Source: Heptranchias perlo
Taxonomy: Eukaryota
Assembly: GCF_035084215.1 (NCBI RefSeq)
Contig: NC_090370.1
Location: 6,014,001 to 6,078,000 of the forward strand
Length of the DNA: 64,000 nt
Reading direction: 5' to 3'
Of this stretch, positions 35,801 to 64,000 are shown piece by piece. The notes under the pieces were generated by a model that was not told where the DNA came from, searched no databases, and saw nothing but the letters and a program-made list of their open reading frames with translations. Each line of letters begins with the position of its first letter. Position 1 is the stretch's first letter. The translations under genes were made by a program, and so were the position numbers.

Positions 35801-38800
35801 GTTCTTGATGGTCTGAGCAGCGACACATTGAGGGCTGAGTTGCTATCAGGTATCAGTGTTACCTCAGTGCCATGATGTATCACATCCTTGAAAAATACTC
35901 CAGTTTCTGCTTTTTAAAAATCTAACTAGCAGATCTCCCATGATATTGCTCATGGTGAGTCAGAAAGTGCGCTGTTTTATAACAGGGGTGTTATCAATAA
36001 GGCATGATAGGGAAAGTATGACAGGAAGTGTGACAGAAATTGCGCACTATACGCAAGACTTTTAACATTAGAGGTATTCAATTCCATTTTTAGGAATTTA
36101 CTTTTCCCAGACAGCAGGCTCCCAAGGTCAAATCATGTGATTTGAAAAGTAGTGACATCACTATCATCTACATTAGCCATTTGCCGATGTTACAAGATCT
36201 CTACTGTATTCAGAGCATAAACTGCATTGAACAAAATAATAAAAGAAACCAAACTTGTATCCTTCAAAGAAAATAGATCTTTCCCGGTTCTGTGATTACT
36301 TAGCTGATCGCGGTCAGTACAGTAGTGGGGGGGGTCATTGTTCCTGGGTTTGAGAGGGAGGAAAATCAGCCAGCCAGGATTCCTTCTCTTGCTCGCCATT
36401 GTTTACCCTCTGCTGGAAAGTGAATAGGGAAGTTGGGTAAGGACAGAATTGAGCTTGACTGTGATGTCAGCCACAGTAAAGGCTGATGGTAAACCTACCC
36501 TCAGACACTGAGGGCATGATTTTAAAAGAGCGGTGGGAGGGCAGCAGGGCGGGGGAGGTCAATGGGCGTGCGGCAAATGCGAATAATTAAAACTTACCGT
36601 TCCCCACGCGATCGCGACTTAATTGTTGGCCATTAATCTTGTTTCCAGGTTTACTGCGCACTGGGCAGACTGTGCATCCGCATGACCTGCTGTCAGCTGG
36701 AACATCTGGATTTAAAGGGCCGTTGCTCCAATGGATTTTGCTGGAGCAAAGAGCCAGACGACCTAATGGAGCAACACAGGGGCAAGGCTGCTCCAAGATT
36801 CAGCAATGCCTCACTCAGATGCTACTGACCGCGGCGAGGAAGAGGAGGGAACTATTTTACCCGGCCGACAGGAGGTGCCTCTGTCACCAAGAAGGCCTGG
36901 CTCAAGGTGGCAGAGGAGGTCACGAGCAGGAGCAACATATCCCACACTTGGGTCCAGTGCAGGAAGCACTTCAATGACCTAACTAGGTCAGCAAAAGTGA
37001 GTACACTTATTGATTCTCCTGTGTTCCGTGTTCCACATCACCCACCACCCCCCCACATTCTGCACTGCCAAGACTACTCCATCACATCACTCCTCACACC
37101 CACTTAAGGCTCATCGTCAACTTACCTTCACTTCCTCACCTCCCCATTTACACTCACCCCAATCCTGATCCAATGTGATGTCTCTGTCTGATACCAATCC
37201 TCTGATGCACCTCTTTCACGGTCAGCCTCACCCAAAGCAATGCATTCATCGGCTGACCACTTCAGCATCACGCACTCACATCTGTACTTTCTCCCCTTGT
37301 AGAAGAGAGTGCAAAATGCATGGGAGAGGGCTAGGACTGGAGGGGGGGGCCGCAACAAATAGTGGCCCTCACAGAGGCGGAGGAGGAGGAGGCCCTGCAG
37401 ATCAGCACCGTTGAGTGCCTGTCCATCGGGGATGCCGAGACTGGCACCCCACAAACGTCTGTGACACAACTTTAACATTCATCACACAACATGAATTGAT
37501 GTTATTAACGATTGGCATGTTGAACACCTCAGTATGCTCATCACATTATACATCTGTGATGATTCTTAATATTGCCTTCTGTTCTCTTCCAGGCCCTTCA
37601 GTGATGGAAGTGACAGGAGAGGACGATTCCTCAGAGGAGCTCCCGGCCTCTGAGGGCGCACCGTCACATCTTAGTGAGCCATCCACCAGCGCAGATACGC
37701 ACACCTCGGTGGGTCCTAGTAGTCAGTTAGTTGGGTTGGCACCTGGTGAGCACTGTCCCCTCGAAGCTGCGCGCGTGCGAGGCTGTGCAGCAGTCTGTTA
37801 TGTGCCGTGCACTTAGACAGTCCGTCCGCACACCAAACCAGTGCTCTCGGCCCCCCTCTCACACTGACCAGTGCCCGGACCCCAGGCCCACCTCCAGCTC
37901 TGCTTCCCTGGTCCCCAGTGCTCCAGCCCCAGCCGGGCTGCTCTGCCTCTGGTGCTGGGGAGTGCCCGGAGGTCCGAGTCTCCAGCCCCAGCTGCCGCAT
38001 TGTTTACCCCGTTGCTAGGAAACCAGACCGGGAAGTAAAATCGAAACCGATGTGTTTGTCAGTGGCCAATCACAGACCGGAACTATCTGCCCAGAGAGCA
38101 GGCACCTCCGCCCAATCAAAGCGCAGGGGCCCATACATAGAGGCAGCCAAAACTAATGAGACTTGCAATATGTACAATTGGAATGCAATAATTTTTTAAA
38201 CGCTGCTGAGGATTCAATGGAGGGGGGGGGGGGGGGGGGAGGAGAGAGCTTCAATTAAACTGTTCCCTATCCCCAAATTCTCTGTGACTGGTTTGACAGC
38301 TGTTTTGTATTTCTGACTCAATCTAAAAATTCTGATTGCACACGATTTATTTCTCTTTGAATCAGAGTCATTAAGATGATTCAACAAAGAGCTGATTGGA
38401 ATCGTTCCCATCAGATCATTTTTAATAAAATGTAACGAAACTGGTCTGCTCAATCCTAATGCAACTTAAGAAACCCATTTCATAAACTGTATAAATTTAT
38501 CAGCCAATATAACATTAAATTGTTACAATTATCCATTATTTTGTACATTGTTCTGTTTGTTAATTACCCTGAATAATGTTTTCTAAAAAGATTGTAAACA
38601 ATTTTACAACACCAAGTTATAGTCCAGCAAAAAGATGTTCTATTTAAAGTTGTGATTTTTTTTACGGTGGCGCACACAGCCTTTATATCGGTGCACAAAC
38701 CCAAATTCATTCTGCACATGGCCAAAAAAAATTAGAGGGAACCTTGCTGGTGAGTCACCACACACAAGTGAGCACGAGCAGACACTGGTGGCAGGGGCAG

Positions 38801-41800
38801 CTGTGGTGAGTCTGTGTTGGTGGGCGCACTCCTCTCCAGGCTCTGCTCAGCTGGACACAGATGCTGAACCCTGGGGGCCATCCTTTAAAAGGAGAATGAT
38901 CGAGGGACAGCAGCACATTTGTGAGGTACTAGAACAGGTGCCATGCACACTCTCCACAATAGCGCAGAGGATGGAGGAGTCCAACTCTTGCATTAGTGGA
39001 ATGGTGGCACAGGTACTTGAGGGAATCGCTGAGATGGTGTTAAAGGGGCGTGAGGAACTGTCTGAGATAGTGTCGCAGGTAACTGCAGAAATGTCTGAGA
39101 TGGTGTCACGGGTAACTGCAGAAATGTCTGAGATAGTGTCGCAGGTAAGTACGGGAATGTCTGAGATAGTGTCGCAGGTAACTGCAGAAATGTCTGAGAT
39201 AGTGTCGCGGGTAAGTGCGGGAATGTCTGCGACGGAGGGAAGGCTAGCCTCCATGGAGCTTCAAGCACGGCTCACCAATGAGTCCACTGAGGCCCTGACA
39301 ATGGCCGTTCGGCTCAGGGTGAACAACATTCTTCTGCCTTAAACAGACAGGAACTTTACAACTGGGCTTCCAAGGCATCATACATGTCCTTTAAACTGTC
39401 GTCCAGCAGAGTGGTAGGAGTGGTGTGGATCTGGTCCAGGAGAGGGAAGATGGCGAAAGGGAACATGGAAGTGGGGACGACACTCAAAGCGCCCCCACGT
39501 CTCACCCGTTGCCCCCCCCCCCTCAACCAGCACCCGCAATCCTGCCTCCTCCCCAGGCGGCCGAGTCAGCCCCTGCACAGGTGCAGGTGGAGCAGTTTTT
39601 GGAGGGGCCCTCAAGGGCTCCAAAACCCAGAGGGCGTAGGCCCAAAGCATCTAATCGGTCAGGGCATGAACATGAGCAACCTGTCACTACCTCTGCTGCA
39701 GCCACAGGGGATGCACCACGTAGAAGTAGTAGGAAGAGAAAGACTAAGGTTTTGTGATCACAAAGAGGATGCACAAGAGTGTCTGACAGACTGTCATGTT
39801 TTTCATTTATATTTGGTTTTTGTTAAAGTCACATTAAATGTCTTCACTCTCACCACTACTGCCAAGCCTTGCCCATTCTTGACTGCCTTTTGTGATAGCG
39901 CCCTTACATGTACTTCATCGTGATCGAAAAGACTTGATGCCACCCAGTGGGTGACTTTACAGTGGGTGTATGTGTAGTTGCAGGACTGTTTTGTGCAGGG
40001 GGGTGGGGGGGTGTCTGGTGTTGGCGTTAGTTTTTCCGGGTGGTGTGAGGACTGGACTATTCTCACTTTGTGATCTTATGAGAACCGTTCACATATGAGT
40101 GACTCCCTGGCCTCACGAGCAGCCAGGTGAGCCGTTGCTCTGCCCAGGGGTTGTTGTTGTTCTTCTTTCTTCTTCCTCTTCCTCTTGCTGATGGCAGATG
40201 TGGACGCTGGATGAGGGCATGGGGCCTCATGAACCGGTACCCCTCTCTGTTGCGCTATGTTGTGCAGGACACAACACACTACTATAATGCGACCCATTCT
40301 GTCTGGTGCCTATTGAAGCGCTCCCCCAGAACGATCGAGGCACCAAAATCTCATCTTCAGCAGCCCTATCGCATGTTCAATTATAGACCTGGTGGCAATG
40401 TGGCTGTCGTTACATCGAAGCTGTTGCTCGCTGATGGGATTCCTCAGAGGTGTCGCGAGCCACATGTGCAGGGGGTATCCTTTGTCCCCGAGGAGCCAGC
40501 CTTTAAGGCTGTTCAGTGTGTGGAAGAGGTCTGGGATGTTGGATTCCCTCAGAATGAACGAATCATGGCAGCTGCCAGGGAATCTGGCGCACACATGAAG
40601 AAATCTCTTGCGGTGGTCACAAACGAGCTGTGCGTTGATGGAGTGATACCCCTTTCTGTTGATGAACAGTCTTGGCTCGTGTGGAGGTGCTCGGATTGCT
40701 ATATGGGTGCAATCGATTGCACCCTGTATGCGTCCTGTACACGTGGGAAGGCAGCCACAGAGTGGAATCCCACTGTCCTCTCCGTCTGGCTAAGGTCATC
40801 CATGGGGAAGTTGACGTAATGCGAGGCCCTGTGAAACAAGCCATCAGTGACCTGCCTTATGCACTTGTGTGCAGACGACTGAGAGACCCCGGTGGCACCC
40901 TGGAATGATCCAGAGGCGAAGAAGTTGAGGGCAGTGGTGACTTTAACAGCGACAGGTAAGAAGATGCTGCTCGGCCCAACCGAGAGCAGCTCGGCATGAA
41001 GGAGGCTGCAGATGTCTGCGACTACCTGGCGACTCACTCTCAGCCTCCATATGCACTGCTGCTCAGAGAGGTCCAGGAGGCTGAGCCTCGGTCTGTAGAC
41101 CCTCTGATGAGATTAGTGCCTCCTGTGACGTCAGTCCCTCTGTTGTTCCCCTCTGTGCTCATGTGCAGGTGCCTGTGACGCAGCACTGTATTGTGGAGCT
41201 ACAAGTGGCGGTGGTGCACACCGTGCCTGGCGAGGCTGGTGATGTTCCACGTCCTCGGATGTGGAGGTGAAAGCAGCCATCGCGCACCCACCACCCCCGC
41301 CCCCCGCATCCTGATGGTGTCAGTTTGAGGGGGTCCGAAAAGTTGGTAAATATTTGTAAACAGAACAATTCTGAGTGGCAACCAAGAATTTTCAGTCTAA
41401 ACACAAAGATCTCCCAGCCAAAAGTTTGTCTGAGAGAACTGAATGCCCTGCTGCAATAACTCACCTTTTATCCCCATCTATCAAACAGGCATTTAAATGG
41501 CCATATGGCTGCTGGCTGAAACCCGTTACGGCAGCCGTCACACAACACGGGAAACATGTTGAGGCAGCGTTGAAATCGCTTGCCTTCATTGTAAATTACA
41601 TTTACTCATTTTTAAACTACTTCAGCTAGTGATGTAGTGGTTTAAGTGCTGTCCCGCCGGCTTTAATTGCCAGTGGGACTTCCCGGTTCGGAAATGGCGC
41701 GCGAGCCCAGGTGGCTCTGGGCCGTGCATGTTCTTCGGCGTCTTGGAGCCGGGATTTCTGCCCACTCCTCGAAAAGCCGATTTTCATTGCCCCCCCCCCC

Positions 41801-44800
41801 CCCCCCCACCCCCAGACTTTTGTTTTAAAATCGAGCCCCAAGAGTCCAGGATCACGTGAAGAATGGGCACTCGAGCAAAATGCCTATGGAACCAACACCC
41901 CAGCAAAAGGACTTAAGAGGCGAGCAGGACAGAAAAAAATCTTAACCAGACGCAGAATATTAGTAACATCTTGGAACTTAAAACCAATTAATATCAACAG
42001 CATTTTACTTCAAATAGTACTTATAAAATAACATTACTGAAGCAGTCACATTGACTTACCCAACACACATGTCGAGGAGACCCTGTTCCAATCCTATAAA
42101 CGAAAATAAAATCAGATTCAAATTCTTTTTAAATACACTTGCACTAACAGTTTCAGAGTGGGAATTGTATTAAAATACCTGAATCAAAATGTGTCTCCTG
42201 ATCTCAATCGCATCTCAATGAAGATTTTTGTATATGGATTGAAGTCAACACTATTACTTTAGCGAGAGTCAAATTTATGGTATTGAAAGAGAGATGTAAT
42301 CACCTCATTCTTGGATCAATCTTTGTAATTATGCTTAGGAGGTCATTTTTCAGCACCATTTCATTCCAGCAGGAGAATATGTCACATTTTACCTGGAATA
42401 ACCTGTTTTTTGCCCAGTTCTACCACCAGAGGATCTCGGCTTAAGGAATTATCAAACAAGGTCCCATCTTCCAGTTTACCCTGAGAAACAGTCGGAAAAG
42501 AAAATGCATCAACTCTCTGGCGTTCACATCCATAGCACACGTTATACCCACCATTCAACAATACTCCAATCAGTAACCTCTAGTATCCAACATTCAGTTA
42601 TCTCTCACTATCCATTAATAGGTAGCCTCCCAATATCCAGCAATACCTCTAATAATTAAAGAGGCATAGAGTACAAAAGTAAGGAAGTCATGATGAACCT
42701 TTATAAAACACTGGTTCGGCCACAACTGGAGTAGTGTGTCCAGTTCTGGACACTGCACTTCAGGAAAGATGCAAAGGCCTTAGAGAGGGTGCAGAAGAGA
42801 TTTACTAAAATGATTCCAGGGATGAGGGACTTTAGTTACGTGGATAGACTGGAGAAGCTGGGGTTGTTCTCCTTGGAACAGAGACGGTTGTGAGGAGATT
42901 TGATAGAGGTATTCAAAATTAGACAGAGCAGATAGAGAGAAACTGTAAAAGGGTTAAGGACCAGAGGACATAGATTTAAGGTGATTAGCAAAAGAACCAA
43001 AGGCGACATTAGGAAAAACTTTTTTACACAGCGAGTGGTTAGGATCTGGAATGCACTGTCAGGGGGTGGTGGAGGCAGATTCAATCATAGCCTTCAAAAG
43101 GGAACTGGATAAGTACTTGAAAGGAAAAAAATTGCAAGGCTACGGGGAAAGGCCAGGGGAATGGGACTAGCTGGATTGCTCTTGCACAGACCCGGCGCGG
43201 ACTCGATGGGCCGAATGGCCTTCTTCTGTGCTGTAACCTTTCTATGATTCTAACCCAATACCCAATGACCTCCAGCATTATCAATCGCCCCAATCTAACC
43301 CACAGTCAATATTCTACAAGCATTCAAGTATCAGTATTCCCAATAACTCATACTCACCTTTTTTTAGAATATCAGCATTTACCACTGATTTTGTAACAGA
43401 GTCGATAATAATGTAACTGACAGATATTTAAATTGATGTTAAATATCCAAGTGTCAACTTGGCTCAGTGTTAACAGTCTTGCATCCAAGTCAGAAGATTG
43501 TGGGTATTAGCCTCACTCCACGACTTGAACACATAATCTAGGCACGATACTTCAGCACAGTATTGAGAGGGTGTATTGTTGGAGGTGATGTCTTTCTGAT
43601 GAGATATTAAACTGTGGCCCAGTCTACCTGCTCAGGCAGATGTAAAAGGTCGCATTGCATCATTTGAAGAACAGGGAGTCCTCCCAGTGTCCTGACTAAC
43701 ATTCCTCTTAACCAACATCACCTGGTCATTTACTGTTTGTTGGTCCTTGTTATATGCAAATTGGTATCTGCATTTGCCGACATAACAGTGACTACACTTC
43801 AAGAGTAATTCACTGGCTGTGAAATGCCTTGAACATCCTGAGGACTTGAAAGGTGCTAGAGAAATACAAATTCTTCTCTTCATCTTATCATAGTAACAAC
43901 CGAGAGAACTATATTTATACCACATGCAAACCCTGCCATGCTGGGAGTCAGTTGGACACTGTACATGTCCTTTAACAGGGAAAGTCAACACTCAATTGAA
44001 ATGCCACCCTCTTTAGAAAGTTGTGCAACAAAACAACGCATGGGGGTGAATTTCTGCAGAAATTGTTCCTACTTGTTCATAACATCGGCAGAAAAGCCAT
44101 GGAAACCCAGGAAAAATGGCATAAAGGCCGTTTATGCCCTTTTCCCGAGTTTCTGTGTCACTTCCACCGAAGTTACAGTCGATGAGCAGGAGAGCCCTTG
44201 TGGAAATCCCCCCCACCCCCCCCCATCAGCTCAGATACAATAGAAAGAAAGACTTTTGCATTTATAGAGCACCTTTCACGACCTCAGGGCATCTCAAAGC
44301 ACTTTACAGCCAATGAAATACAATGTTGTCGGTTGAATTTTGCCACAACAGAATACAATTAAATTTAGAGCAACTGACAGATGACTGTGTTTGAAAGTTA
44401 ACATTTTTTAAAAAGTACCATTTTTGGAAGAGTTGAGTTTTCCTTGAAACTGGAATAGCGTTTTGACTTGATGCTAAATCCCTATGAGGGGTGGATGGCC
44501 CGTTTTAAATCATTTAGCTGGGTAAGGCAGTCACCTTTCAAAGCTAAACTCAGCAGCCATTATGATCGACAATGTTTCCCAGTACACCCATTATCGGAAA
44601 AAGAGCCCAAAGGGGTTCAGAGAGTGCATCAGTTACTGTTTGCAAAGATGTGTAAGTCTACTTGGGAAGGTGTCTCCACAATAAAAAAGTGAAGCACATG
44701 ACTCTCCTGGGCTGCAAGGGGCACAGTGTGTTGCAAAAGCAGGGATTTAGCTACAAAGAGTTTCAGAATTAAAAGGTAAAAAAATAACTCAACATATTTC

Positions 44801-45591
44801 CTAAACGTAAATGCTGTTGGTTTGCTTCCACTAAATATGAATGGAATATTGCATTTCATGCCAGATTCAGATGAATTCATTTGTTTGAGGTGCAGGGCTG
44901 AGCTACAGTAGAAACTGATCAGATAATACGAGGACTTACGTATGAGTTTCACTTACTGACGTGGCCATTTGTCAGTTCCTCTAGTTTTCTGATCACTATT
45001 AAAAACTCTTCCTGCTCTGAAGTCCCCGGAGCCTAGTTGATTTACAGTTAGGTTCCAATTGGAAATGTACTTCCTCTTAATACTTTCCCTGGAGATTGAC
45101 GGGGGGGGGGGGGGGATATCGAAAAGCATTATTGCTGACGTGTTATTGCAGTCAGAACCCCATCCGCCTACCGCCTCTATACGTGCAACAATTTCCATTT
45201 TTCTTATTCCAAATAAAAAATATTAAAACACTTCAAATTTTCTGGTTACACGAGAATTTGTAAAAAGGCAACTTTGTGGAGAGTTGCGGTATTTCTCACA
45301 GTGTAGTGGATATGTAGAGTGTCTCCAACAGTCGACAGCTCGGGACATCCCTCTGGTTTCAGCTGTTAAAAAAAACAATTTGCAAATCAAGAGAAATGCA
45401 GACACAGGCGGTGTGTTTCTTTACAGTTGTCACCTCACAATGTTACAGTGAAAATAAAAGCTCCCAGAAAGACCTTTTATAAGAAATTTGCTCACCAGGA
45501 TTTCCACTTTAAGTTCTTGCACTTTTTCATCCTGGCTCGAGAATCCGCCCAATGAGACAAGAATCAGAATCAGGAGCCCGGCTCTGCTCAT
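32884..45591 (-). CDS. FKBP11: Peptidyl-prolyl cis-trans isomerase FKBP11, 189 aa; exons 45591-45496, 45362-45300, 42480-42393, 42093-42060, 35024-34954, 33101-32884
   Basis: [18 protein letters not shown] (signal) / ...GDTLHIHYT / [29 protein letters not shown] / [12 protein letters not shown] / [23 protein letters not shown] / [12 protein letters not shown]...TM helix...KGKAKNK (KxKxx ER retrieval). Exon phases consistent; convergent with CCDC65 as in human. Confidence 0.96.
33275..33910 (-). mobile_element. CR1-type LINE 3' fragment in FKBP11 intron 5
   Basis: ORF 33423..33767 [10 protein letters not shown]...[16 protein letters not shown]; closely resembles the copy at 2058-2821. Confidence 0.9.
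35165..35515 (+). mobile_element. tRNA-derived SINE (representative of an abundant diverged family)
   Basis: A-box tggctcagttgg and B-box gttcaatcc; shared body (...ctggaaagtg...tgaagaat.ggca..tggg) recurs near 6640, 8050, 12080, 21310, 24750, 36280, 45870 and 54450. Confidence 0.65.
37751..38746. mobile_element. Non-autonomous hAT-type element, 996 bp, 8-bp TSD
   Basis: ctggtgag at 37743-37750 and 38747-38754; imperfect TIRs cactgtcccctcgaa / ttagagggaaccttg; removal restores the reading frame ...[19 protein letters not shown]... Confidence 0.85.
38995..39225 (+). repeat. 33-bp coding tandem repeat ([11 protein letters not shown])n, 5 near-perfect + 2 degenerate units
   Basis: tctgagatagtgtcgcaggtaactgcagaaatg repeated from 39061 to 39225, in frame in ORF 38788..39342. 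Confidence 0.9.
40076..41280 (-). pseudogene. Harbinger transposase (HARBI1-like DDE nuclease), disrupted
   Basis: [68 protein letters not shown]; in-frame stops and frameshifts. Confidence 0.9.
42652..43251 (+). mobile_element. CR1-type LINE 3' fragment
   Basis: gaggcatagagtacaaaag...ctttctatgattcta; same subfamily as 47454-49905, in the opposite orientation. Confidence 0.88.
43455..43870 (+). mobile_element. Deu-domain SINE (SacSINE1/AmnSINE1-like)
   Basis: tRNA-like head ttggctcagtg, then ggaggtgatgtctttctgatgagatattaaac...gatgtaaaag...gaagaacagggagt, matching the recalled Deu central domain. Partial copies near 20010-20350 (-) and 57430-57660 (+). Confidence 0.65.
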
Positions 45592-49905: not shown

Positions 49906-52439
49906 GTATAAGTATCCTTATTTACTCTATCAAAACCCTTATATTCTCTGGACCCTTTGCAATGCATTGGTCCTTTTGAAGATAAGGAGCCCAAAACAGC
50001 ACATAATATTCTAAATGTGGCCTCACCATGAAGTGTTAAAGCGAGCTGCTTTGACATTTAATCAAATGTCCTTGAAATAGATTCCAGCACTTGACTAACT
50101 TTGTTGACAATAGCTTTATGCTGACTGGACTTTAGGAACCACTTAATAGTCAAAACTCAAATCATTTTCTTTTTTCATCTTTGTTGGTGGAATTGAACTA
50201 ATTTATGTTCCATTCTCCAGGATCAGTCAAAATAAAAATGATAATACATGTATTATTTCGTTATGAGGAGAGGGTTCAGGAGTTTGGGTTATTTAGAGAA
50301 GAACAGGACTTAGAGGGGTACAATTAAAGTTTTTTAAATGATGAAAGGATTGAGTACAGACTGGTTAGATTAATTGAAATGGATAAGGATGGTAGGACCA
50401 GGTGGCCTGCCTATAAAATCTATATGGGAATTATTTGTTTTCACAGAGATTCATCACCCTCTGGTGGGTAAGGCATTATTACAATCCTTTAAAAGATGAT
50501 TTGATAAGTTCCTGAGAGAAGAAGCCATTTCCAGTTATTGGGCTTAAGTTGCGAGTTAGCTGTGATTGTGATGAGTCAGGGGCCACTGTGATCTCCTGGA
50601 CCTTGTTGGACTGACTTAAGGACCCAGAGCCTTTCTTGAATTGGTCCCAGTTTTTTTGCCTCTCGCAGGAGATAGTGTGATAGCGTGGAGTGGGTGATAG
50701 GTGTGCAAGGTTGCACTATTGACTGGATGAAGCGAGCTTGATGGTCATTGCTTACAATCACTGCCATTCTGTTGGGAGAGAGGAGATTTTCATCCCATCA
50801 TTCTGGACTGGATCAGAACCTAGGTCCCCAGATTGAAAAGACAGTGTTGTAACCCATTGTGGCACTCAATCCCTGATCTCCCTTTGTAATCTAATCTGAT
50901 TTAGCTGTTTGATTTGAACAGTGAATTCCAGAATTAGTTCAAAACAATACAGCATTGACCGATACAATACATAGAATCTCAGACTGTATTCACAGTGCTG
51001 GAATGTGGAATTTTTAAAAAGTTATTGGTAAGTTATAAACTCACAAACAGACTTTCACTCAACCAAAGCTGGCCACTTAAACATTAGGACAGAAGAAACA
51101 ATCCTGAATAAGGAATAAAATACACCTCTGATATTGTCAGCAGAAAGCTGCATCAAGCTTGAAGAGACCAGGAGCTACAGGATAGTAGAGAAGTAAGCAA
51201 CAGGAGATAGTGGGGAAATGCACCACTGTAACTTTCAACTGGACAGGTTACTTTCACAGTCACCAAAGCTGGAAAGTTACTTACCTCGCGAGTTACTGAG
51301 TAGAATTTTTCACGTTGCTCAAAATTTCAAAGAGTTATTTCTTAAATGTACTCCATACGATGTGATAAAGTCATGGCTCATTATAACCTAGAAATTACTG
51401 GAGTCATATTAGCAGACGAATGCTCAACATGCTCACGTGACATTCATTAGCTATCGTAACTGAAGTGTTAACACATTTAAAACAGATTAGTGCCTCCATT
51501 AAAATAAGAGATCGAGGAATGTTAGAAAAACCTGTTAAACGTTCATCCATTAATATCATCACAGTATTTTCTAGGCTTGTAGCTTTTAAAACTAAATCTT
51601 TTTAAATTTACCATTGTCTTGAGAGTATGTTCCACTGTATGGAGTCACAACCAGCACATATACATTTTTTTCAAATTTATTTTTTGTCCCTCGGTAAAGT
51701 TTTTTTTCTTTTTTAGGCCCCTCCTTTCTGAGCCTCCTTCCCGTCACACTATAAACTGTTCCTTGATGGAGAGGGGTGTGCAGGCCTTAACCGATGATGT
51801 TCTAGAGCTGGCCATTAAAAATTTACACACAAGTGCAGTGTCATTTGCCTCTACTGAGTGCTTCCTCTTACTGTTGTGGTCGAGGCCTAGGCTTCTCGGG
51901 GAACTTCCTTGTGAAACCAGATGCAGTAAATGAAAGTACTTGCTGAAGGAAGTAACAACAGACTTCCACAGACCTGACGTGAAAGGCCCATTAATTTTTT
52001 ATGAAATGTTTTTTTAAAGAAAAATTCAATGTGATTTTTTACCCTCAGTTTTAACCTAATCTTGTTAAGTGTCCTAAACTACAATTCCACCTCCCGTTTA
52101 AAAAAAAGCACAAAGGAAAACATGATGATATTGGAGGCAGCTTCTTTCCCACTCGGTGTGAGAGCAGCAGTGCAAGACAGAGGAGGAGGTTTTAACATTT
52201 GGAGAGTGAAAAGCAGAAACTAATCCAGGATTAATGTCAGAGGTACAGAGAGAGGAAATGTCCCAGGAGGATTTGGGATGTTAAAAACGAATTTAAAATG
52301 GTCAAAAGAATTGGTTAAAAATTCAATTAAAATTGCACATTCTGGAAGAGGATGAACAGAGGAAAAAACATTCTCCTGTTTTAAAAAATCTTGCTCCAAT
52401 CCTTTTTAAACAATGAGTAATAGAACTTTTGCTGTTGGG

Positions 52440-53804
52440 ATGAGAAATTGTGGCCTCCCTCCCGATCTTGCCCTTTTGTCTTTACTACTGTGCTGCATCA
52501 TTACCCTGGGGGAATCAAGTCAGGCTGCAGATCAGAGTGAGGTAAAACCCATTCCTGACCATGACCCTGAATGTCAGGAAGTATTGCAGCGAGCAGGCTG
52601 ACTACAAGCAGGGCTTTCAGAGATCAATATCAGCCACTTCCTAGGTGTACCATTGCTGAGTTTAATGCTTTGTTCACAATTGGGTTTAAAGTTGATGCTG
52701 TTTTTATTTCCTGTTAGACACTTATCTTCATATATGATTTTGCCACAGTTTTAAATTTCAATAATAAAAGTTTACAATAAAAATAGCATTTCATTGTTTT
52801 CATATTTTTCTGTAAAGCAGTGTGAAAAATTGAAGATTTACATTTACCACCTGGATCTCCATCTGGAATCATATCACATCTCGTACTGGAATTTCTCAAT
52901 CAATCCAGAGGGTGACATCTTTTGAAATCACAAATGATCATCCACATTTAATTCATCTATGCACCTTCCGGCTGCCCTCAATTTTGGGGCACAGTGATAC
53001 AGCAAATCCACCACAAATATGACATGGTAGGAAATGTAATTGACTGGGATCGGCCTGAGCAATACTGGATTATTCAATCATTTGTTGAAGAGTTCTACTT
53101 TGGAGAGATTCCAATGAGGGAGGTAAATTACATAGGATTTCACATCACAGAAACAGGCCATTCGGCCCCAACAGGTCTATTTCGGTGTTTATGCTCCACA
53201 CAAGCCTCCTCCCACCTTACCTCATCTAACCCTATCAGCATATCCTTCTATTCCTTTCTCCCTCATGTACTCATCTAGCTTCCCCTTAAATAAAATTCCC
53301 ATTAAGTTATCAAATGAAAGATGTTTAGTACATGTACGAGTAGGACACTTACCAGTGTACAGCAACATTAGTGTTTCAATAGGACACTTGCTAGTTAAGT
53401 GAAAGAGACACTGTGATGCCCATCTCATGAACTATTTCCGAGTTAGCAAACTAAAGCTAGCCATGCAGTAACGTGCCAACAGGTGGCGACATTCCACCAC
53501 AAGGATGGCGACATTTCTTACCCTGTGATGTTCACTCTCTGTAAATTTACAAAGAAAACAAAACAGAAAATGAATGTGTTAAGAGTAGAATATTGGAGTC
53601 AACTCTTTTACTGTATGATTCATTTAAAGTAGATTTTAATGGTTAGAATTGTGAACATTTACTCGATTTCCTTTGTATTGACTCAACTGAGTTATCAACT
53701 CCAGATATTAACCTCCCATTCTATCTCATTACTCTATCTCTCGATGTTTGTGGCAGTGCCCCCCAAAACTGGTGCTTTTGGACTTTGGGATGTGTTATCC
53801 ATAA
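52440..53804 (+). CDS. Candidate unannotated small secreted protein, ~123 aa; exons 52440-52541, 52818-52911, 52995-53122, 53757-53804
   Basis: Signal-peptide-like exon 1; three GT-AG introns with mutually compatible phases (0, 1, 0) give one open frame; ATTAAA at 53926-53931. Intron 2 (83 nt) has weak sites. No homolog recognised with certainty. Confidence 0.5.
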
Positions 53805-56451
53805 ACCTCTCTTCTACCAATTCCAAATTCCAATCATTTTCATCTCATTTTAATTTTGGATTTTTTTTGTCTCACTTGGAACCAATCTCGTTGCTATTCA
53901 AAATCCTTGAAAAAGCATGAATTTTATTAAAAGTGATTTATTTTTAGTTTTTCTGTCCACCTTTCCCAGAAGCAGCAATCATCAGATCAATAATCACTTG
54001 TTGATAACTTGTTTATTTCCTTGTTCTGTTACTAACACAAACTTATAAAAGTTACCGTGATGCTCGCAGATACCCTCTATTTCTTATGGTCACCTCACTA
54101 CATTCCCCACTCAACCTCCCAGCCAAATGATCACAGTATTCTATGTTCACAGAGATTCTTAACATTTATTAACATATCTAAAACAAAATTAAAATTAAAT
54201 AAATTGATAATTGAAAATTCATTATCATCACTACGTATGTTTACGAATCAATAAAAATCAAAGACTTTCTCTGGTAGGTGACACTTACTGGTTTACTGAC
54301 TGGATAAGTCAAATTCATTTTTTACACTATGTGATTCCAGGATTTTTACCATGATTTAGTGATTGCATTCCGTGATTCCATCCATTTTTCTGTGAAAACC
54401 AAACACTTTACTAATCAACAATCTGAATTGGAATGGAGCGACACGTTAATAAATCTCAGTTTGCTAACCTGACCCAGGGGTGCTGAGGCCAGTTGGAACA
54501 TTTCCATTAGATGCTAGCTGTGATCAGAGTCCAGAGATTGAACCTAGGACCTTCCTGATCTGTATGGTACAGTAAGCTGAGTTCTTCAAAAAAAAAATTG
54601 ATGGCAACCTGCAGATTTCTCTGCTTTCTGAAGTACCTTCGTGACAATTTTTTTTTGGTCTAGTGTCGGAATTCACATGGACATTAGCAGCCAGCTAAAG
54701 CCGGAAATGTCATGCCAGGCATTATTTCTTGCATCCGCCCCCTTCCATATGAACGTCACAAGATGCATATGTGGCAGGACGTCCTCTGTCCAAATTCCTT
54801 CTAGCTCTGCCCCCCACCACAATGTACACCTACGTGATGCAGGGATACTTGCATGCTCGGACGTGATCCTGTTGGAAATGAGGCCACTTGCAATCTAAAA
54901 AGCCAGTTTCCCTACGACAATCAATCACATATTGAGCAATTACTGCAGGGAAAGTGGCAAGTTCCAAAACTGGCCATTTGAAATATTTTTAACAATCTTC
55001 CAGCCACTCATTGATGCCGCAGCAAAGTGCCACAGTGAACTCCCCTGCCCTCCGGGGTGGGCTCCCCAGTTATGGTGAAAGTGGCACCGGCATTTGCCTG
55101 TATTATGTCAACGCCCCTGATCCCGGCAATTAGGGCTGGGTCAGCAACACAATTTGGCAGCATCCAGAAGTCCCACTCTGCTATAGTCAAGGTGGAGGAT
55201 CGGGACCCGGGGAAACTCGGGGCCTTAATGCTTTCCTTACTGAATGCAGGTAGATAAATGAATTTGTTCCTGTCATATAAGTACGTCTCTATATGCCTTA
55301 CGGTGGGGAGGGAGGGAGCAGTGCTTTACCCAGTCTATCAAATGGGCACTCTCTCCCATCTAGGTGTGAGTTAGTATAATAATGGTCAAGAAATATAAGA
55401 ATAAATGTGAAATTTATTTCCATCTTTCCTTTTGTACCAAATATTTATGAGTAGTACTTAGTGTTACTGAAAGGTTTTATTTAAATTATCATGTTTAAAT
55501 GTAGGACTTTTATTCAGAACCTTTCTCCAAGCCTGAATAATGGTAACAGTCCTTCCAGAACTTACACAGAAACATAGGAATGGCTAGATGAAAAAAGACC
55601 ACGGTCCGTCTAGTTCGCTGTCTACCATCCTGCTGTCGTATGATATAAGAACAATGTAGTGTAACTTTGTTTTCTGATTGCTTTGAGTTCTCTCTCAAAC
55701 ACACATAAATACAAGAAATGCAGTTGCTATAACCATTACAAAGTACAATCAAAATTAAACAATACCAAATTTCAAAACAAAACCTTTTATTTGTCACACA
55801 GGTAAAACAACGCTAAAGAAATAACACTGAATATAGTGTCACTGGAATCAAAATGAAGAGAAGGGCCGTTTGACTTGAGCTGCACCCAATAAGGAGGAAC
55901 CAAATCATTTACAGAAAAATGGTCAGCAAAGCCCAACCCAATAATTCAAGCTCCCCAAGTACTCAGGCTCATGATACAGGAGTAGGCCTCTGCAAGAAAA
56001 CTCTTACCAAGATTTACAACACAGCACTGATTTATGTTAGAAATTGTACTTCTCCCTAAAAATGTTGAGCAGGAAGGAAAATCAAGATGGCAGCTCATAC
56101 GAACTGCACAAAATGTTTGGAGCAACTCGATTGGTTTCGCTTCTCCTTTCTTTTATTGGTAGCTGTTGCTGACTGCCCAATTTTGATTTGTAGTTTTGTG
56201 AACTTCATAATTGATGGTTTTCATTCTTGCTCACCACTTGTCGGTCGCCTAACCATTCGACTGTTTATTTGTTGCTATCTTATGAATATGAAATCTGAGT
56301 CAAACAGCTTCAAATAATTTGCATATAATGAGTGATGCCAAAGTGTAACACAGGAAGTGTGATCAAAACACATTAGACATACTAGCAGTTCTCCCCGGCA
56401 TTGCTCACAAAGTCAGATAATATGCTGTTTTATAAGGACAGGAGTGTCTTA

Positions 56452-57418
56452 CATAGAATTTACAGCACAGAAACAGGCCATTCATCCCAAGTGGTCTATG
56501 CCAGTGTTTATGCTCTACACGAGCTTCTCCCTCCCTACTTTATCTAACCCCATCAGCACAGCCTTCTATTCCTTTCTCCCTCATGTACTTATCTAGCTGC
56601 CCCTTAAATGTATCTATGCTATTCGCCTCAACTACTCCATGTGGTAGCAAGTTCCACATTCTAACCACTCTCTGGGTAAAGAAATTTCTCCTGAGTTCCT
56701 TATTGCATTTATAAGTGAGTATCTTCTATTTATGGTCCCTGGTTTTGGTCTCTCCCATGAGTGGAAACATCTTCTGTACATCTACCCTATCAAATCCCTT
56801 CATAATTTTAAAGAATCCCATTAGGTCACCCTTCAGCCTTCTCTTTTCTAGAGAAAAGAGCCCCAGCCTGTTCAGCCATTTTTGATTGTTATAACCTCTC
56901 AGTTCTGGTATCATCCTTGTAAATCATTTTTGCACCTTCTACAGTGCCTCGATATCCTTTTTGTAATATGGAGACCAGAACTGTGCACAGTACTCTGTAT
57001 GGTCTAATCAAGGTTCTATACAAGTTTAACATAAACTCTCTGCTTTTCAATTCTATTCCTTGAGAAATGCTTTGTTTGCATTTTTGATGGCCTTATTAAC
57101 TTGCATTGCTACTTTTAGTGATTTGTGAATCTGTACCCCCAGATCCCTCGGCTCCTCTCCCCCATATAAACTCAAGGAGTATGTGGCCTCTTTATTCCTC
57201 TTACCAAAATGCACCACCTCACAATTATCTATATTGAAATTAATTTGCCGTTTACACGCCCATTCTGCAAGTTTATTAATGTCTTCTTGTATTTTGTCGC
57301 AGTCTTCCTCAATATTAACTCTACCCCCAATTTGGTTTCATCCGCAAATTTTGAAACTGTACTTCCGATTCCCAAGTTCAAATGGTGAACAACAGTGGTC
57401 CCAGCACCGATGCTTGTG
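56452..57418 (-). mobile_element. Degraded CR1-type LINE 3' fragment
   Basis: IPELRGY...LGLFSLEKRRLKGDL in ORF 56726..56914; CR1 tail at ~56452. Confidence 0.87.
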
Positions 57419-58829
57419 GTACATTAAAATCTGATGGCATGATTTAAAGAAGAGCAGTCAGGGAGTAGTCTCTTGGCCAACATTTCTCCCTCAACCACAA
57501 GCGATTCATCCCAGTGTTGTCGATGGGATCTTGCCATTGGCAAAATGGCTGCTGTGCTTGCTTACCTAACAGTGATTGCACTACAAATTACTTCACTGTG
57601 TATGAAGGGCTTCGAGACATTTGGGAGAGGTGATAAAGTGTTATATAAATGCTTCCTTTTTCTTCCTCTATAAATAATGCCATGGTAGCTACTTTGCAAA
57701 ACAGATTTTAAGCTTCCTCCCCCTCCCCCAAAAAACCTTCTGTTACTAATGTCTCTAAATAAACATTTGGGATTTATGTGAACCTCCACTATTGGAATGA
57801 TAAAATTATATAAAGAAATGATTTGATGATTGAACCTCCTCTTGGAGCTCACTGGGATACACTGCTTCATTGGCGGTCAATCCAAATGCAGAATGAGAAG
57901 TGAGCTCTATTTTCATAAATAAATAAGACATTTCAGGAGCATCTGAATGTGTGAGATCTGCATCTCACTGGAAATGTTGTGGGGAAGTCAGAGGGATGTT
58001 GGTGAGCTGCGCTTCTATAGCAACGAGAGAGGAATCTGAACAATTCTTCACAGGGACTGCTGCTGTCTATTATGCCAGTCTTCAGTCTTTTGTGCACTTC
58101 TTCCTCGATTAGAAAATGCAGTGTTTCCCCACTCTCCCCGCTTACATACCACTGTCAGTTGCTGTGCATTTGAAAAGACAGAATGGCTGAATCCCCCATG
58201 ATTTAATGTGATTACTGCCTGGGTCAATACCATTTCGACATGTGATGTTGAGAGGTTGCATTGGGAACAATGTGGACAGGCTGAAAGTGAAAGAGACAGA
58301 TGAGTGATGACTGCCCCGAATAGGGCTGTGATGGGAGCGGCTCCCAAACCGCTGCTCAGTGTCTCTGCTCGTACTGGGGGAGAGACGGACACGGGCACCA
58401 GTGGGACCCAACAGCTGATCAAGGAGAACCTTGGTGTGGCCGTGATTCTGGCAGAGAGCTTTTCTAATGCTCCTGTCATTCATCTGCAAAATGAGCCGGA
58501 TTAGCAGAGAATGGGATTAGTGGTGACGAGAGCCCAAAAAAAGGTTTCCGGTTTACTCAGCCCCGCTCCTCAAGGCTAGCTTTATCCTATTCTCCCCCCC
58601 CAGTCATGCTGTGCTAAAGTGCACACAGCACAGTGAAAACCAGCCGAGCAAACTAAAGCAGTAATCCCCTCTCTTTGGAGAAATGGAATTAAACCGATTT
58701 AGATAAATTACCCACCCCCAGTGAAGCTCAGACCATTCCACCATTACCCACTGTTGGGTGCTGATGAGCTACTTAGGGAAACCCTGTGGTAGAATCAGTT
58801 CAGGACACATGGATAATGTAGAAAGAGAG

Positions 58830-59510
58830 AAGCGGATGACCACCTGCAGGGGCAGCAGAGGGAGACAGGAATCACAGGTGCAGAGAATCCCGGGTTGCTG
58901 GAAATGTCCCATTGATACATAGTGTTGGACAACTGTGAAGTGGGCGGTGACAGTAACTCAAAGGAGGGAGGTCCTGAACAACACTGGCACTGCGGAGCAA
59001 GGTGTTACCTGAGGGTGGAAGGCATGTGGGCCACGAGACTAGGAGAGCAATAGTACAGGGAAACTCTATAATCAGAAGAATAAACAGCCTTTTTTGCAGT
59101 AGTGACTGGGAGTCCTAAATGGTATGTTACGTCCCTGATGCCACATCATGGGCGGAAATATTTCTGCGAAGGCAGGGAGAGCAGCGAAATGTTGTGGTCC
59201 ATGTTAGAACCAATGACATAGCTAGAAGTACATGTACGGTCTTGCAGAGGAATTTAGGCACCAGATTGCAAAACAGGGCCTCAAGGGTAGTGATCGTCAG
59301 TTTGCTTCCCGTGGCACAGGTCAAAGAGTGGAGGATTAGAAAGGTCAATGGATGACCGGTGCAAGAGAAAAGGGTTCACATTTTTGGTCCATTGGAGCAA
59401 GTTCTGGAACGAGGGAAGACTTTACCAAAGGGACAGCCTTCATCTGAACCAAAATGGCACGAATGTCCTTGTGGAGAGGATAAAGTAAGCAGTGGGGGAT
59501 TTAAGCTAAC
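58830..59510 (+). mobile_element. CR1 ORF1 remnant (SGNH esterase-like)
   Basis: GNSIIR, VVVHVRTNDI and SRVVIVSLLPV resemble the CR1 ORF1 esterase blocks (GDSIVR, VVVHIGTND, VVISGLLPV). Confidence 0.75.
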
Positions 59511-59702
59511 TGGCAGGTCAGTTGGGAAAGTCTGGGCTTGAGACTAGAGAAGGAGAGGAGGATTAGTAAAGTGGAATACACATCAAGTTTGTGGCAGTTC
59601 AGGCGAGATCAGCGATTAAGTAATTCATGCAAAATGTAGGTTTTACATTGCGACTGTTTTACTACCACTGTCCCAGTGAGACGATGAACTACCTCCCACT
59701 CA

Positions 59703-59966
<264 letters not shown>

Positions 59967-60677
59967 TTAACCTGCTCTCAAGCATCTCCCATTGTACACT
60001 ATAAATCAGCCACTAGGAGGCCATTAGTTGAGACATTCAGATTTCCCCTCTGCTCCTTGCTTCCTCCTTGCATGCCCCTCCCCCTCCAAAAAAACAAAAG
60101 ATGAGGAACTTGCCATGTGGGGATTACATTTCCAAGCCCATCAATTACCATGCCAATTAGTGACATTAATACCAATGCACTCTGCCACCAAACACTTTAT
60201 TTTGTCCATGTAGAAGCATCGGCAAGCAGCTACCTTTATATTGAGATGAAATCACTTCTATACTAACATTACACAACTAGCACCTTATTAAACAAGGAGG
60301 AAAATGTGTGGCGGGGGGAGGGGAAGAAAGAGACGGGAGGAGAGAATATACAAAATACTCTTTGCTCCCATTTGTTACAAGCCTTGATTGTCTGTTTAGA
60401 ATTATTTTATTGCTACCATTAGTTTAAAATAAATGGATTAATGTTGGCATTGAAATAATGCTGATTGAAAAATCTAGTGTCTACCTCACAGCAATATTTA
60501 GTTCTATCATCATTTTCCATCTCAAATGGCATCGAGAACCAGAAAGAAATCCGGCAGATGGGCAGTTTTCTGGAGTCATTCATTAACAGACTCATTAAGT
60601 GACTCCCTGCTGACAATGCTTTCTTCTTTTTATCCCCCTCCAAAAGAGAGGGAAGCCACTAACACTATCAATAGGTT

Positions 60678-60812
60678 GTAAACAATTTTACAACACCAAG
60701 TTATAGTCCAGCAATTTTATTTTATTTAAAATAAAATTGCTGGACTATAACTTGGTGTTGTAAAATTGTTTACAATTGTCAACCCCAGTCCATCACCGGC
60801 ATCTCCACATCA
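60678..60812 (+). mobile_element. Hairpin mini-element (Penelope-like terminal footprint) with 12-bp TSD
   Basis: Perfect 49-bp inverted arms 60676-60724 / 60727-60775 plus 37-nt tail; tatcaataggtt at 60666-60677 and 60813-60824. Confidence 0.78.
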
Positions 60813-61218
60813 TATCAATAGGTTAAGATTTTCAGGGTCGGTGGTGGGGGGGGGCGGTGGTGATGGAAGTTGTGTTGTGAATTTTCTGCTCCTCAAGGTG
60901 AAGGATGTTAGTGCAGGATAATTGAACACTTTCCATACCAGTCATCGAAGGGGCGATGACTGGTATGGCCCAATTGGTTGCCACATTTCCTACATTACAA
61001 CAGTGGCTACACTTCAAAAATACTTCATTGGCTGAAAAGTGCTTTGGGACGGCCTGAAGTCGTGAAAGGCGCTATATAAATGCAAGTTCTTTCTTTATAT
61101 GCTTTCCATCACAAAGACCACTTACTTCCACCACTGCAACATTGCCCACCTCTGCCCCTATTTCAGCCCCTCTGCCGCTGAAACCCACATTCATGTTTTC
61201 ACCATCTCCAGACTCAAT

Positions 61219-61454
61219 GGGGATGATTTTAATCCCCAAGAATGGGTGGGTGGGAGTTGAAAATAATTGTTTTGTTGGGGTCGCAACCGCAAAATTTCCG
61301 GATTTTGCATTCCCTGTGGGAAGCCTGTACTTTTACACGCCGACGTTAAACCTCCGGAAATAAAGCCAGGTTGCGGTCGCGACCCAAAAAACAACTATTT
61401 TCAACTCCCGCCCGCCCCCAACCCACCCGTTCTTGGGGGTTTAAAATCACCCCC
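61219..61454. mobile_element. Palindromic Harbinger-type MITE with 3-bp TSD, inserted in an L2 fragment (~61100-61780)
   Basis: ggggatgattttaatccccaagaatgggtggg / cccacccgttcttgggggtttaaaatcaccccc; aat on both sides; TIR resembles that of the 36512 Harbinger. Confidence 0.85.
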
Positions 61455-64000
61455 AATTACTCCAATCTTCAGCTTGCTGGGCTCCCTCCCACCATAAACC
61501 CTGTTGAAAACTCTGCGGCACACATCCTGTCCCACACTAACATATATTGGCTCCTTGCCCTCATTAAGTTTCTTATTAAGTTTCTTTTCCCTCCCCAAGA
61601 AATAATGGACTTGTCCCACCTCCAGCTCTATCCTCCCGTCCTCTAATATTCCATTCCTCTGTTGCAGAGCCTTCAGCCACCTGGGTCCTATTCTCTGGAC
61701 TTCGCTCCATAAAAGTCTCCATCTCACTCTTTGCCTTCAAAAAACTTGTCAAAGCCCATCTCTTTGACCAGGCTGTTGATTAGTTCTTCTAATCTCTCCC
61801 TTACTGGCTCGCCATTTGTTTTCCTTATGTATATCTGTGAATTGCCGTGGGATTTTCTTAATGTCAAAGTTGTTGTTGTTCTGTGTTCTCTTCAACTACA
61901 TTATGTGATGAGCTGCAGCACCAAACTTAACTGTCAAATTACACTGACTGACAGCACATTGCAAACCACAACCATCTATTTTGTGAGCAACAAAGGACAC
62001 AAGCTTTTAACATTCTGAAAATACAAGTTGCAGAAAATAAATCATTTTAATGACTCAAGTGACAACTGAAGCAGCACAGGTGCACCTGAGCTACTACATG
62101 TGCTCATAAAACCTTCCCCACATCTCCATTAGATGGGAAGCCACTCTGATATGTTTATCACAAGTGCAGCTCCGCACAATCTGATCTAGCTATAAACACA
62201 TCAAAAAGGTAATGTGTCGTGCTTTGGAAACAGGAAAAGAGAAAGCAGTGGGTAAAGAATCTCAGCTTTTTACACATCAAAAGCAGTGCCATGCTACTTA
62301 AATAGCTGATGTGCACTTCTTTCCTGTGTATTAGAATGATTTCAACAGGCTTTCTAGTGCAATGGGGATTGTAAGCTGGTCAAAGCATCAGGAGCTCTGT
62401 TAATGTTCCTCTACAGGAAAACATCAAGTAAATTATAATAAAGACACATTTAAGAGAAGACACTCAGGATCCATTCAGAGTTCATTTCATTATATGCACA
62501 CAGCAAGGAAATGAGTATAACTGGAGATTGTGTTCCTTCTCCAGTTTCTTATTGCAGGTGTCTTCTCACTGAATGATCTCTCTCAATTATGCTGCAAAGA
62601 CAATTCTGAATAAACTCATTCTTAACAATTCAAACTGCTCTCAATGTAATAGTACATCACAGTCACTGTGCCTAGTGGTGACATTCAGCACCCACTCCAA
62701 GAAATAAACTCAAGACACTGCAGCACTTGTCAGAAGAGACAACTACCCCCAGTTTCCACAAATTCAGCTGAAATGCTGATATTCTAATTTAAGTGTAATA
62801 ATTCAGATATTAAAAGGGAATAGAAGCCAAATATTTATGGTCAATGATCATTCTCTAATTCTTTTACACACCTAATGCAGTCTGCAAAAGGCAGATGGGC
62901 ACCAGAGATAAATAAAACTAAAGTAAGTCAGCAATGTCAGCTTTAATAAATTTTCATTACAGCCTTGAAAACCTATATAATTCAACATGAAAGCAGTTAA
63001 AAAAAAAGCAACTCCAACTTGAAGAATGGCTTTCAAATTTTGGTGACCTTCCAAGCAGCAAATTCTCTACCATTAAAACAATAAGACGACAGCTGACTGC
63101 TCTCTCCATGTACAGACACATTAATACTTGTTACTAGTTAGAGATCAAATGTTTTTGGATTTTAGTTCTATTTGTTACCAACTTAATCCACAACAGGATG
63201 AGCCAGACAGCAGATGTGAGGTATACAATAGTGGCTCCAGTCTGAAAATGGATGTGTGAACTTTTAGATCTTCAAAATCACATTTTTAGGGGTCAACTCT
63301 ATTAATATTTTGGAGTTGAGCTATACAGAACATCACAATGTACTGTGACAAACAGTTTTAATCACAACAGTTATCACAATTAGAGGCATGCACTCCACAT
63401 TAATCTAGACCAGATATGCTTGCAGCAACATCTCTCTATAGATGCTTCAGCTTGGATCACTGGAATCAGTACTTATTTGAAACATCACTCAAGAAAAATA
63501 GCAAGAGACTAAAGAAGGGACAGTCGAGTTAAATGACAACCCACAATTATTAACACAGTTCGTGACCACTTTTTACAGTGATTCCAAATATTCCAGTTAC
63601 TAAAACATATAATGGATGTAAGGAATGCTTTCTTCTCTGACTCATCTGGGAAACTTACATTAACACAAGAAGAATTGATGCTGTCCAATAAACACATTTT
63701 ATTATAATTCCATTAACAATACTATTTTCATAAATAGTTTTTGCTCTAAGATTTGTCCACAATACTTTCTCTACATATTACATACAGAATCTTAAACTCC
63801 ACTGACAAACAACTAACTCCTCTATATTCAAGGAAGATAAACAATGCACTGCCTAATACTTCAGATACATTGCGGACTTCAAATTTTTGACTAGGTCCAG
63901 CCCAGATACAACACTGACCTGCTGCTGTCACTGGGAATGTCAGAAACTGCTTCTGTTTACTTGGGAGCCGAGTTGAGCTCTGTCAAATGTTTTTTGTAAC

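Follow-up and report, generated by a model that had tools for sequence, protein, structure and literature searches.

A candidate four-exon gene for a small secreted protein, possibly saposin-like, beside an FKBP11-like gene in Heptranchias perlo

The candidate gene and its predicted product

The stretch of Heptranchias perlo DNA analyzed here (the window) is 64 kb long and corresponds to G000:C49:6014001-6078000 of the 3.25-Gb genome; coordinates without a contig label are positions within it. From left to right the window carries what we take to be an NPFF-like precursor gene, CCDC65, an FKBP11-like gene, the candidate gene studied in this work and a partial ARF duplicate. A first-pass annotation had proposed the candidate as an undescribed four-exon gene for a small secreted, Cys-containing protein. 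Its four-exon layout, GT-AG splice dinucleotides, reading frames, stop codon and ATTAAA hexamer were all reproduced as given there (Table 1). The frame is kept across all three junctions (phases 0, 1 and 0), all 132 codons are free of stops and frameshifts, and the predicted lengths of 132 amino acids (aa) from the first ATG and 123 aa from the second (52440) are likewise correct. The ATG at 52413 has an A at position -3 and an in-frame stop directly 5' of it.

The predicted signal peptide in exon 1 has a crude hydrophobicity of 3.2, compared to 3.1 for the signal peptide of FKBP11. Cysteines are found at residues 13, 27, 28, 45, 118 and 130, and an N-glycosylation sequon at N68. The predicted mature chain has 94 residues (11.5 kDa) with an isoelectric point (pI) of 4.7, 15 Asp + Glu versus 6 Lys + Arg residues, and 17% aromatic residues. 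In peptide-hormone precursors the mature peptide is flanked by dibasic convertase sites; no KR, RR, KK or RK pair is present anywhere in the candidate translation. There is also no endoplasmic reticulum (ER)-retention tail, and the product stops two residues past its last Cys.

Table 1. Coordinates of the candidate gene and of other features in the window.
Feature	Position	Strand	Remarks
Exon 1	52413/52440-52541	+	Phase-0 donor GAG/GTAAAA; predicted signal peptide, then short acidic linker
Exon 2	52818 or 52821-52911	+	Tandem acceptor; weak phase-1 donor AGG/GTGACA; C45, predicted helix 1, 7-residue insertion, N68 sequon
Intron 2	52912-52994	+	83 nucleotides (nt), phase 1
Exon 3	52995-53122	+	128 nt; phase-0 donor GAG/GTAAAT; acidic and aromatic, covers the region of predicted helices 2-4
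Exon 4, coding part and stop	53757-53804	+	TAA at 53802-53804; C118, saposin-like C-terminal segment, C130
ATTAAA, candidate polyadenylation signal	53926-53931	+	T-rich sequence 3' of it
High-copy short repeat at start of intron 3	53127-53291		Genome search
Non-coding exon of antisense read-through, inside candidate intron 3	53353-53538	-	Contigs, 0 mismatches, AG/GT flanks
Second non-coding exon of antisense read-through	54289-54389	-	Contigs
FKBP11-like gene, left neighbor	32884-45591	-	Six coding exons, head to head with candidate; one exon matches FKBP_C at E 6e-5
Partial ARF3-like duplicate	57722-63301	-	Three blocks, 86-93%; one coding exon 59718-59842, 100% identical to exon of intact gene

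Coding statistics, splice sites and homologue searches

A chain finder was set to report an ATG, a hydrophobic segment and four exons with at least 110 codons, using splice matrices and the candidate's weakest sites as splice thresholds. From simulated sequence (43.5 Mb, one strand) it returned 105 chance chains, or ~0.3 per 64-kb window. The chain shape is thus not rare by chance and alone proves little. The codon-position bias and acidic content of the candidate are less easily obtained. The difference in GC content between third and second codon positions (GC3-GC2) is 0.195 (p 0.002 versus 10,000 draws of open non-coding frames), 0.27 for exons 2-4 (p 0.0009) and 0.36 for exon 2 alone. Asp + Glu (D+E) residues amount to 13.8% (p 0.004, 10,000 non-coding draws), with 19% in exon 3 alone, and Ser + Arg residues to 8.9% (p 0.02). 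Each of these three values is near those of the local genes. None of the 105 chance chains matches the exon 2-4 values of GC3-GC2 or D+E, and only two match the codon score. Among the eight chains found in 1.41 Mb of real strand sequence the candidate ranks at the top on both GC3-GC2 and D+E, and the periodicity signal is highest in the reading frames of exon 2 and exon 3. It should be noted that these coding statistics are mutually correlated. Since no chance chain equals the codon-position bias or the acidic content, we consider it quite probable that the candidate is a live gene.

Some of the measurements weigh against this conclusion. The splice sites are weak, as the first-pass annotation had conceded for intron 2: donor 2 scores 0.9 versus a median of 3.9 for 11 true donors, and the three acceptors score 2.7, -1.0 and 1.0 versus a median of 6.4 for 13 true local acceptors (all with the same matrices), while 95 of the 105 chance chains have a splice total at least as high. 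The codon score falls between the null and true exons (p 0.03-0.11), synonymous usage (p 0.07-0.18) and amino-acid composition (p 0.26) do not stand out, and T at the first codon position is not coding-like. The contigs assembled from three runs (X1-X3, one sample, which we only presume to be RNA) cover none of the four exons, a result that is neutral with regard to expression.

Homologue searches in protein libraries and models were carried out with single exons rather than the spliced product, and the searches yielded no credible homologue. Exon 3 gave one candidate homologue and the exon 2 frame gave two, none of them scored; a close search with exon 3 gave none. Pfam, searched exon by exon, had no match for any exon. 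An HMMER search of 1.84 billion representatives yielded four matches (expectation value E 5e-6 to 6e-4) that were judged to be chance: three of the four are multi-stretch matches in long proteins, and the two that were inspected are bacterial-type repeat proteins. This library does not contain the query protein, and its lineage coverage is therefore incomplete. No match at 0.9 or more was found in ESM Atlas, and PDB sequences gave no match in one search and one chance match at E 0.52 in another. Three loci from a metagenome scan were discarded, since their similarity is confined to 15 residues where the query begins with intron-derived sequence. Genome scans with PF05184, PF03489 and PF20825 did not pick up the locus, and the last of these produced no further saposin-like domains for held-out tests; nor is the locus among the 11 genome matches to PF11938 (DUF3456). 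A resemblance to CYTL1, augurin, lipocalins or short-chain cytokines was also entertained and is at most conjectural. The literature covered by our search, with subscription journals and supplements outside it, contained no description of a gene in the FKBP11-ARF3 interval.

In genome searches exon 2, exon 3 and the DNA at 52330-54300 are single-copy, except for the repeat at the start of intron 3 (Table 1) and one match to intron 1. The latter pairs 52638-52723 with G000:C15:31674947-31675033 (86 bases, 76% match) with no exon similarity nearby, and is possibly an old low-copy repeat. When the spliced product was used in tblastn, no paralogue was found in the 314 kb surrounding the locus, nor in 100 kb around each of two other ARF genes or 20 kb around the C15 match. 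In tblastn exon 3 weakly resembles a high-copy repeat, presumably Penelope-like, but at the DNA level the resemblance is chance (nhmmer E of at least 2.3, the positive control having worked; p 0.14-0.78 on shuffling); a repeat origin of exon 3 was dismissed.

Comparison with saposins and rival explanations

The reference set was taken from the same genome: prosaposin (SapB_1 PF05184, SapB_2 PF03489; G000:C39:24.48-24.51 Mb), a three-domain gene that we call SP-B-like from its domain layout (G000:C23:49.10-49.12 Mb), and three Canopy genes. The saposin profile was built from six of seven domains; saposin B was omitted because only its first exon is complete, and the third SP-B-like domain is without its last exon. 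Aligned end to end with this profile, the candidate reaches a z score of 4.3 at gap setting 11/1. Across three gap settings and three types of shuffle, one of which keeps both end cysteines in place, z is 3.5-5.3. The score is matched by 0 of 5000 shuffles and by 0-2 of the 105 null chains (none at the default gap setting). Two of 631 real-protein windows also reach it, and both come from the 16 Canopy windows; none of the 615 non-Canopy windows do. Exons 2, 3 and 4 each contribute to the score: shuffling a single exon gave scores at least as high in 11, 17 and 3 of 500 trials, respectively. None of 70 unselected control profiles has a z of 4 or more. An alternative last exon at 54123 has a better splice score, but it is non-coding-like and lowers the saposin profile score to -20.0 versus -8.3 with the 53757 exon; the putative terminal exon at 53757 is thus supported independently by the profile.

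The first and last saposin cysteines align to C45 and C130, 85 residues apart, and the N68 sequon is at most one residue away from the saposin sequon. Intron 3 is in phase 0 and lies 13 codons ahead of the last Cys, an exact match to saposin A (12 codons in SP-B-like domain 1), and the middle exon has 128 nt versus 126 nt in saposin A. Intron 1 is also in phase 0 as in saposins and directly precedes the first Cys, being 3 codons closer to it. The four inner saposin cysteines are absent: positions 2 and 5 are occupied by L48 and L124, and positions 3 and 4 by Y83 and I101. As saposin disulfides pair 1-6, 2-5 and 3-4, both members of each inner pair are gone together. When modelled alone, the exon 2 peptide forms one helix (residues 2-28, predicted local distance difference test score (pLDDT) 90) and the exon 3 peptide a helix at residues 20-35 with low confidence (mean pLDDT 60). 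A beta-hairpin reading of exon 2 was dropped because the model has a helix instead.

Other observations weigh against a saposin relationship. The family was chosen by eye after many others had been considered, and short peptides modelled from a single sequence often come out helical. Three of 32 control profiles pre-selected by similarity to exon 3 also reach a z of 4 or more, as do 3 of 90 in a mixed set. A local hidden Markov model (HMM) built on these saposin domains scores the candidate at -0.6 bits, which is not significant, and the best pairwise local p values are 0.015 (SapC), 0.039 (SapD) and 0.054 (SP-B-like domain 2). Compared singly, saposin A gives a z score of only 0.8. When the inner cysteines of true saposin domains are replaced, these domains still have z scores of 7-19.5, far exceeding the candidate. 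For the alignment to work, two insertions of 7 residues each and a helix 4 that is shorter and contains Pro are required; intron 2 is in phase 1 instead of 0 and is displaced 7 nt downstream from its saposin counterpart; and the aromatic content of 17% compares with 2-6% in saposins. Given the far higher scores of the Cys-replaced domains and the non-significant local HMM, we regard the saposin link as remote and probable but not proven.

In PMC7447066 the hallmark of saposin-like proteins (SAPLIPs) is given as six conserved cysteines forming three disulfides, with two disulfides in granulysin, and the fold is described as tolerant of disulfide loss; mutual identity among known SAPLIPs is only 14-29% (PMC11542183). 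Because four of the six cysteines are absent and Pfam has no match, the product is not filed as a SAPLIP member. Of the first-pass claim, an undescribed gene for a small secreted protein that is likely real and single-copy can be retained on the basis of the coding statistics, the signal-peptide-like start and the support for the 53757 exon. The protein had been left unassigned there; a remote saposin-like domain is favored here over a wholly new class.

Prosaposin is among the closest systems known. Saposins A, C and D share with the candidate the bracketing cysteines, an acidic domain (pI 4.2-4.4 versus 4.7) that is predicted to be helical in the candidate, and the sequon place; intron 3 is shared with saposin A, and single-sequence z scores are 4.4 for SapD and 3.3 for SapC. 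The candidate differs in having a lone domain behind its predicted signal peptide and in lying on a different chromosome, with one extra Cys, the two 7-residue insertions and more aromatic residues. In the SP-B-like gene, helix 3 of domain 2 shares a 5-residue identity with the candidate and domain 1 shares the three-exon split, with single-sequence z scores of 2.7-2.8, but that gene encodes a multi-domain precursor of six-Cys domains. It is located at G000:C23:49108900-49119500, in a likely lungless fish. NK-lysin and granulysin likewise consist of a signal peptide and one saposin-like domain, and both are cationic antimicrobials. The acidic candidate differs from them in charge. NK-lysin is called cationic in PMC6583974, and granulysin also lacks one of the family disulfides (PMC7447066). 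An acidic product would, by analogy, fit a lipid carrier better than an NK-lysin-type cationic antimicrobial; the net negative charge, as in saposins A, C and D, argues against the latter role. Neither a clear NK-lysin nor an ordinary CNPY2 was found in genome searches in which only the best candidates were scored, so that the counts are lower bounds. A weak SapB_1 match with a good acceptor at C44:11981947 might be NK-lysin.

Four rival explanations need to be weighed. The candidate could have arisen by chance, with open frames and mediocre splice sites happening to line up in intergenic DNA, and the expectation of ~0.3 such chains per window, the 95 of 105 chains with equal or better splice totals and the lack of detected homologues are what this reading predicts. 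The same 105 chains, however, include none with its periodicity or acidic content, two with its codon score and none with its saposin score at default gaps, which makes a chance origin decidedly unlikely. The weak acceptors, the intermediate codon score and again the failure to find homologues would also suit a decaying or silent unitary pseudogene that descends from an old gene for a secreted protein, saposin-like or otherwise, with its frame still open and crossed by an antisense read-through; the partial ARF3 duplicate shows that local rearrangement adjoins the locus. We think this quite unlikely, as 132 codons are free of stops and frameshifts and all GT-AG sites are present together with a polyadenylation-like signal.

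The gene may instead be real and its product a small helical protein that is secreted but has no relationship to saposins, such as an orphan ligand or cytokine-like factor, with the alignment reflecting a shared spacing of amphipathic helices. Non-significant local tests, the loss of four of six family cysteines, the equal z of some pre-selected unrelated profiles and the mismatched intron 2 can all be explained in this way. The kept Cys pair, the paired losses, the sequon place and the exact intron 3 are all saposin-like, and no non-Canopy window among 615 reaches the score; we therefore rate an unrelated protein as rather unlikely. A Canopy origin has to be considered since Canopy proteins (DUF3456, PF11938) are saposin-like, their windows have saposin-profile scores similar to that of the candidate, and short motifs resemble CNPY1. 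The candidate would then be a shrunken CNPY1/2-like derivative, and possibly a CNPY2 remnant, from which the ER-retention tail, the loops and most of the cysteines have disappeared. Only three Canopy genes (C2, C15 and C38; CNPY1-, CNPY3- and CNPY4-like) were found in the assembly, a lower bound, and when long gaps are made cheap, z comes to 2.3-3.3 for CNPY1 and 2.4-3.4 for CNPY4. The end-to-end Canopy profile gives a z of only 0.1-1.0 and the local p for CNPY1 is 0.29. Canopy proteins are twice the length of the candidate (DUF3456 has ~150 residues), possess six cysteines and have other introns, with no candidate intron at any of the Canopy exon boundaries observed. They carry a C-terminal ER-retention signal, which in the CNPY1-like gene is an HSEL tail; the candidate does not have one. 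A Canopy derivative is thus highly unlikely, the more so as CNPY2 may simply have been missed with only the best candidates scored.

The reading we favor, with a probability of roughly 0.5, is a likely real gene whose product is a secreted or lysosomal, acidic, saposin-like four-helix lipid carrier of ~11 kDa that is likely N-glycosylated. The transcript would be spliced in a restricted tissue, and the signal peptide would route the protein to the secretory pathway with cleavage near residue 38. N68 would be glycosylated and a C45-C130 disulfide would close the chain, while the hydrophobic pairs L48/L124 and Y83/I101 may stand in for two inner saposin disulfides, leaving C118 free and available for a dimer. 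By analogy with saposins, the amphipathic helices might open around membrane lipids to extract, carry or present them. Saposins are described in PMC7447066 as binding membranes mostly at acidic pH, and more strongly once their disulfides are reduced.

We tentatively extend this reading to an undescribed vertebrate saposin-fold gene that arose from a saposin-A-type exon module and encodes a stand-alone secreted lipid carrier with two disulfides swapped for hydrophobic pairs, possibly lost from the FKBP11-ARF3 interval in mammals. Saposin-like proteins are recognized almost wholly by their six cysteines; a gene of this kind would escape every cysteine-based saposin search, and more such genes would be hidden from annotation. 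It would mean that the outer disulfide alone together with hydrophobic pairs suffices to keep the fold in a natural vertebrate member, and to prosaposin, the Canopy proteins and the SP-B-like gene in the cartilaginous-fish repertoire it would add an acidic member with a single domain. The gene would also be a natural counterpart to reported experiments in which removal of saposin disulfides raises membrane binding (PMC7447066). Should the saposin link fail, the locus would still be a probable unannotated secreted gene.

Neighboring genes and the antisense transcript

The candidate had been placed between FKBP11 and ARF3. The FKBP11-like gene does lie on its left, under a name that we assume from synteny and domain layout. 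On the right, the ARF piece inside the window is only a partial ARF3 duplicate. A complete ARF gene is found at G000:C49:6089421-6098156, 11-20 kb past the window, and the duplicate matches G000:C49:6085190-6104445. Contigs cover 57382-59699 of the duplicate region. The duplicated ARF exon could serve as an alternative last exon for a C-terminally truncated ARF, or could have been kept by gene conversion.

A minus-strand spliced read-through RNA was detected at low depth in contigs from two of the three runs (X1 and X2). It runs from the ARF exon at 59718 through 54389-54289 and 53538-53353 to 45362 in FKBP11 exon 2. The middle joint (53538-54289) has 101 letters on its shorter side, and the outer two have 30 and 27, under the 31-letter bar. 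The frame stops soon past the ARF exon, and the RNA is likely non-coding or degraded. The candidate sits antisense within the introns of this RNA.

Other features were noted along the region. FKBP11 exon 5 (34900-35100, minus strand) has a GC donor, and an FKBP11 intron holds a transposon remnant (36591-41467) with transposase-like and Myb-like frames, which we take to be Harbinger-like. CCDC65 was identified by its NYD-SP28 matches. The presumed NPFF-like precursor consists of a signal-peptide exon at about 9069 and a terminal exon at 5248 with an RF-amide motif end, both on the minus strand. To the right of the complete ARF gene, two WNT genes on the minus strand (G000:C49:6191600-6219500) are presumably WNT10B-like and WNT6-like, judged by their motifs. 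An inverted pair of a young high-copy repeat at 60676-60815, with ends that we assume to be Penelope-like, was also found in many of the fetched loci.

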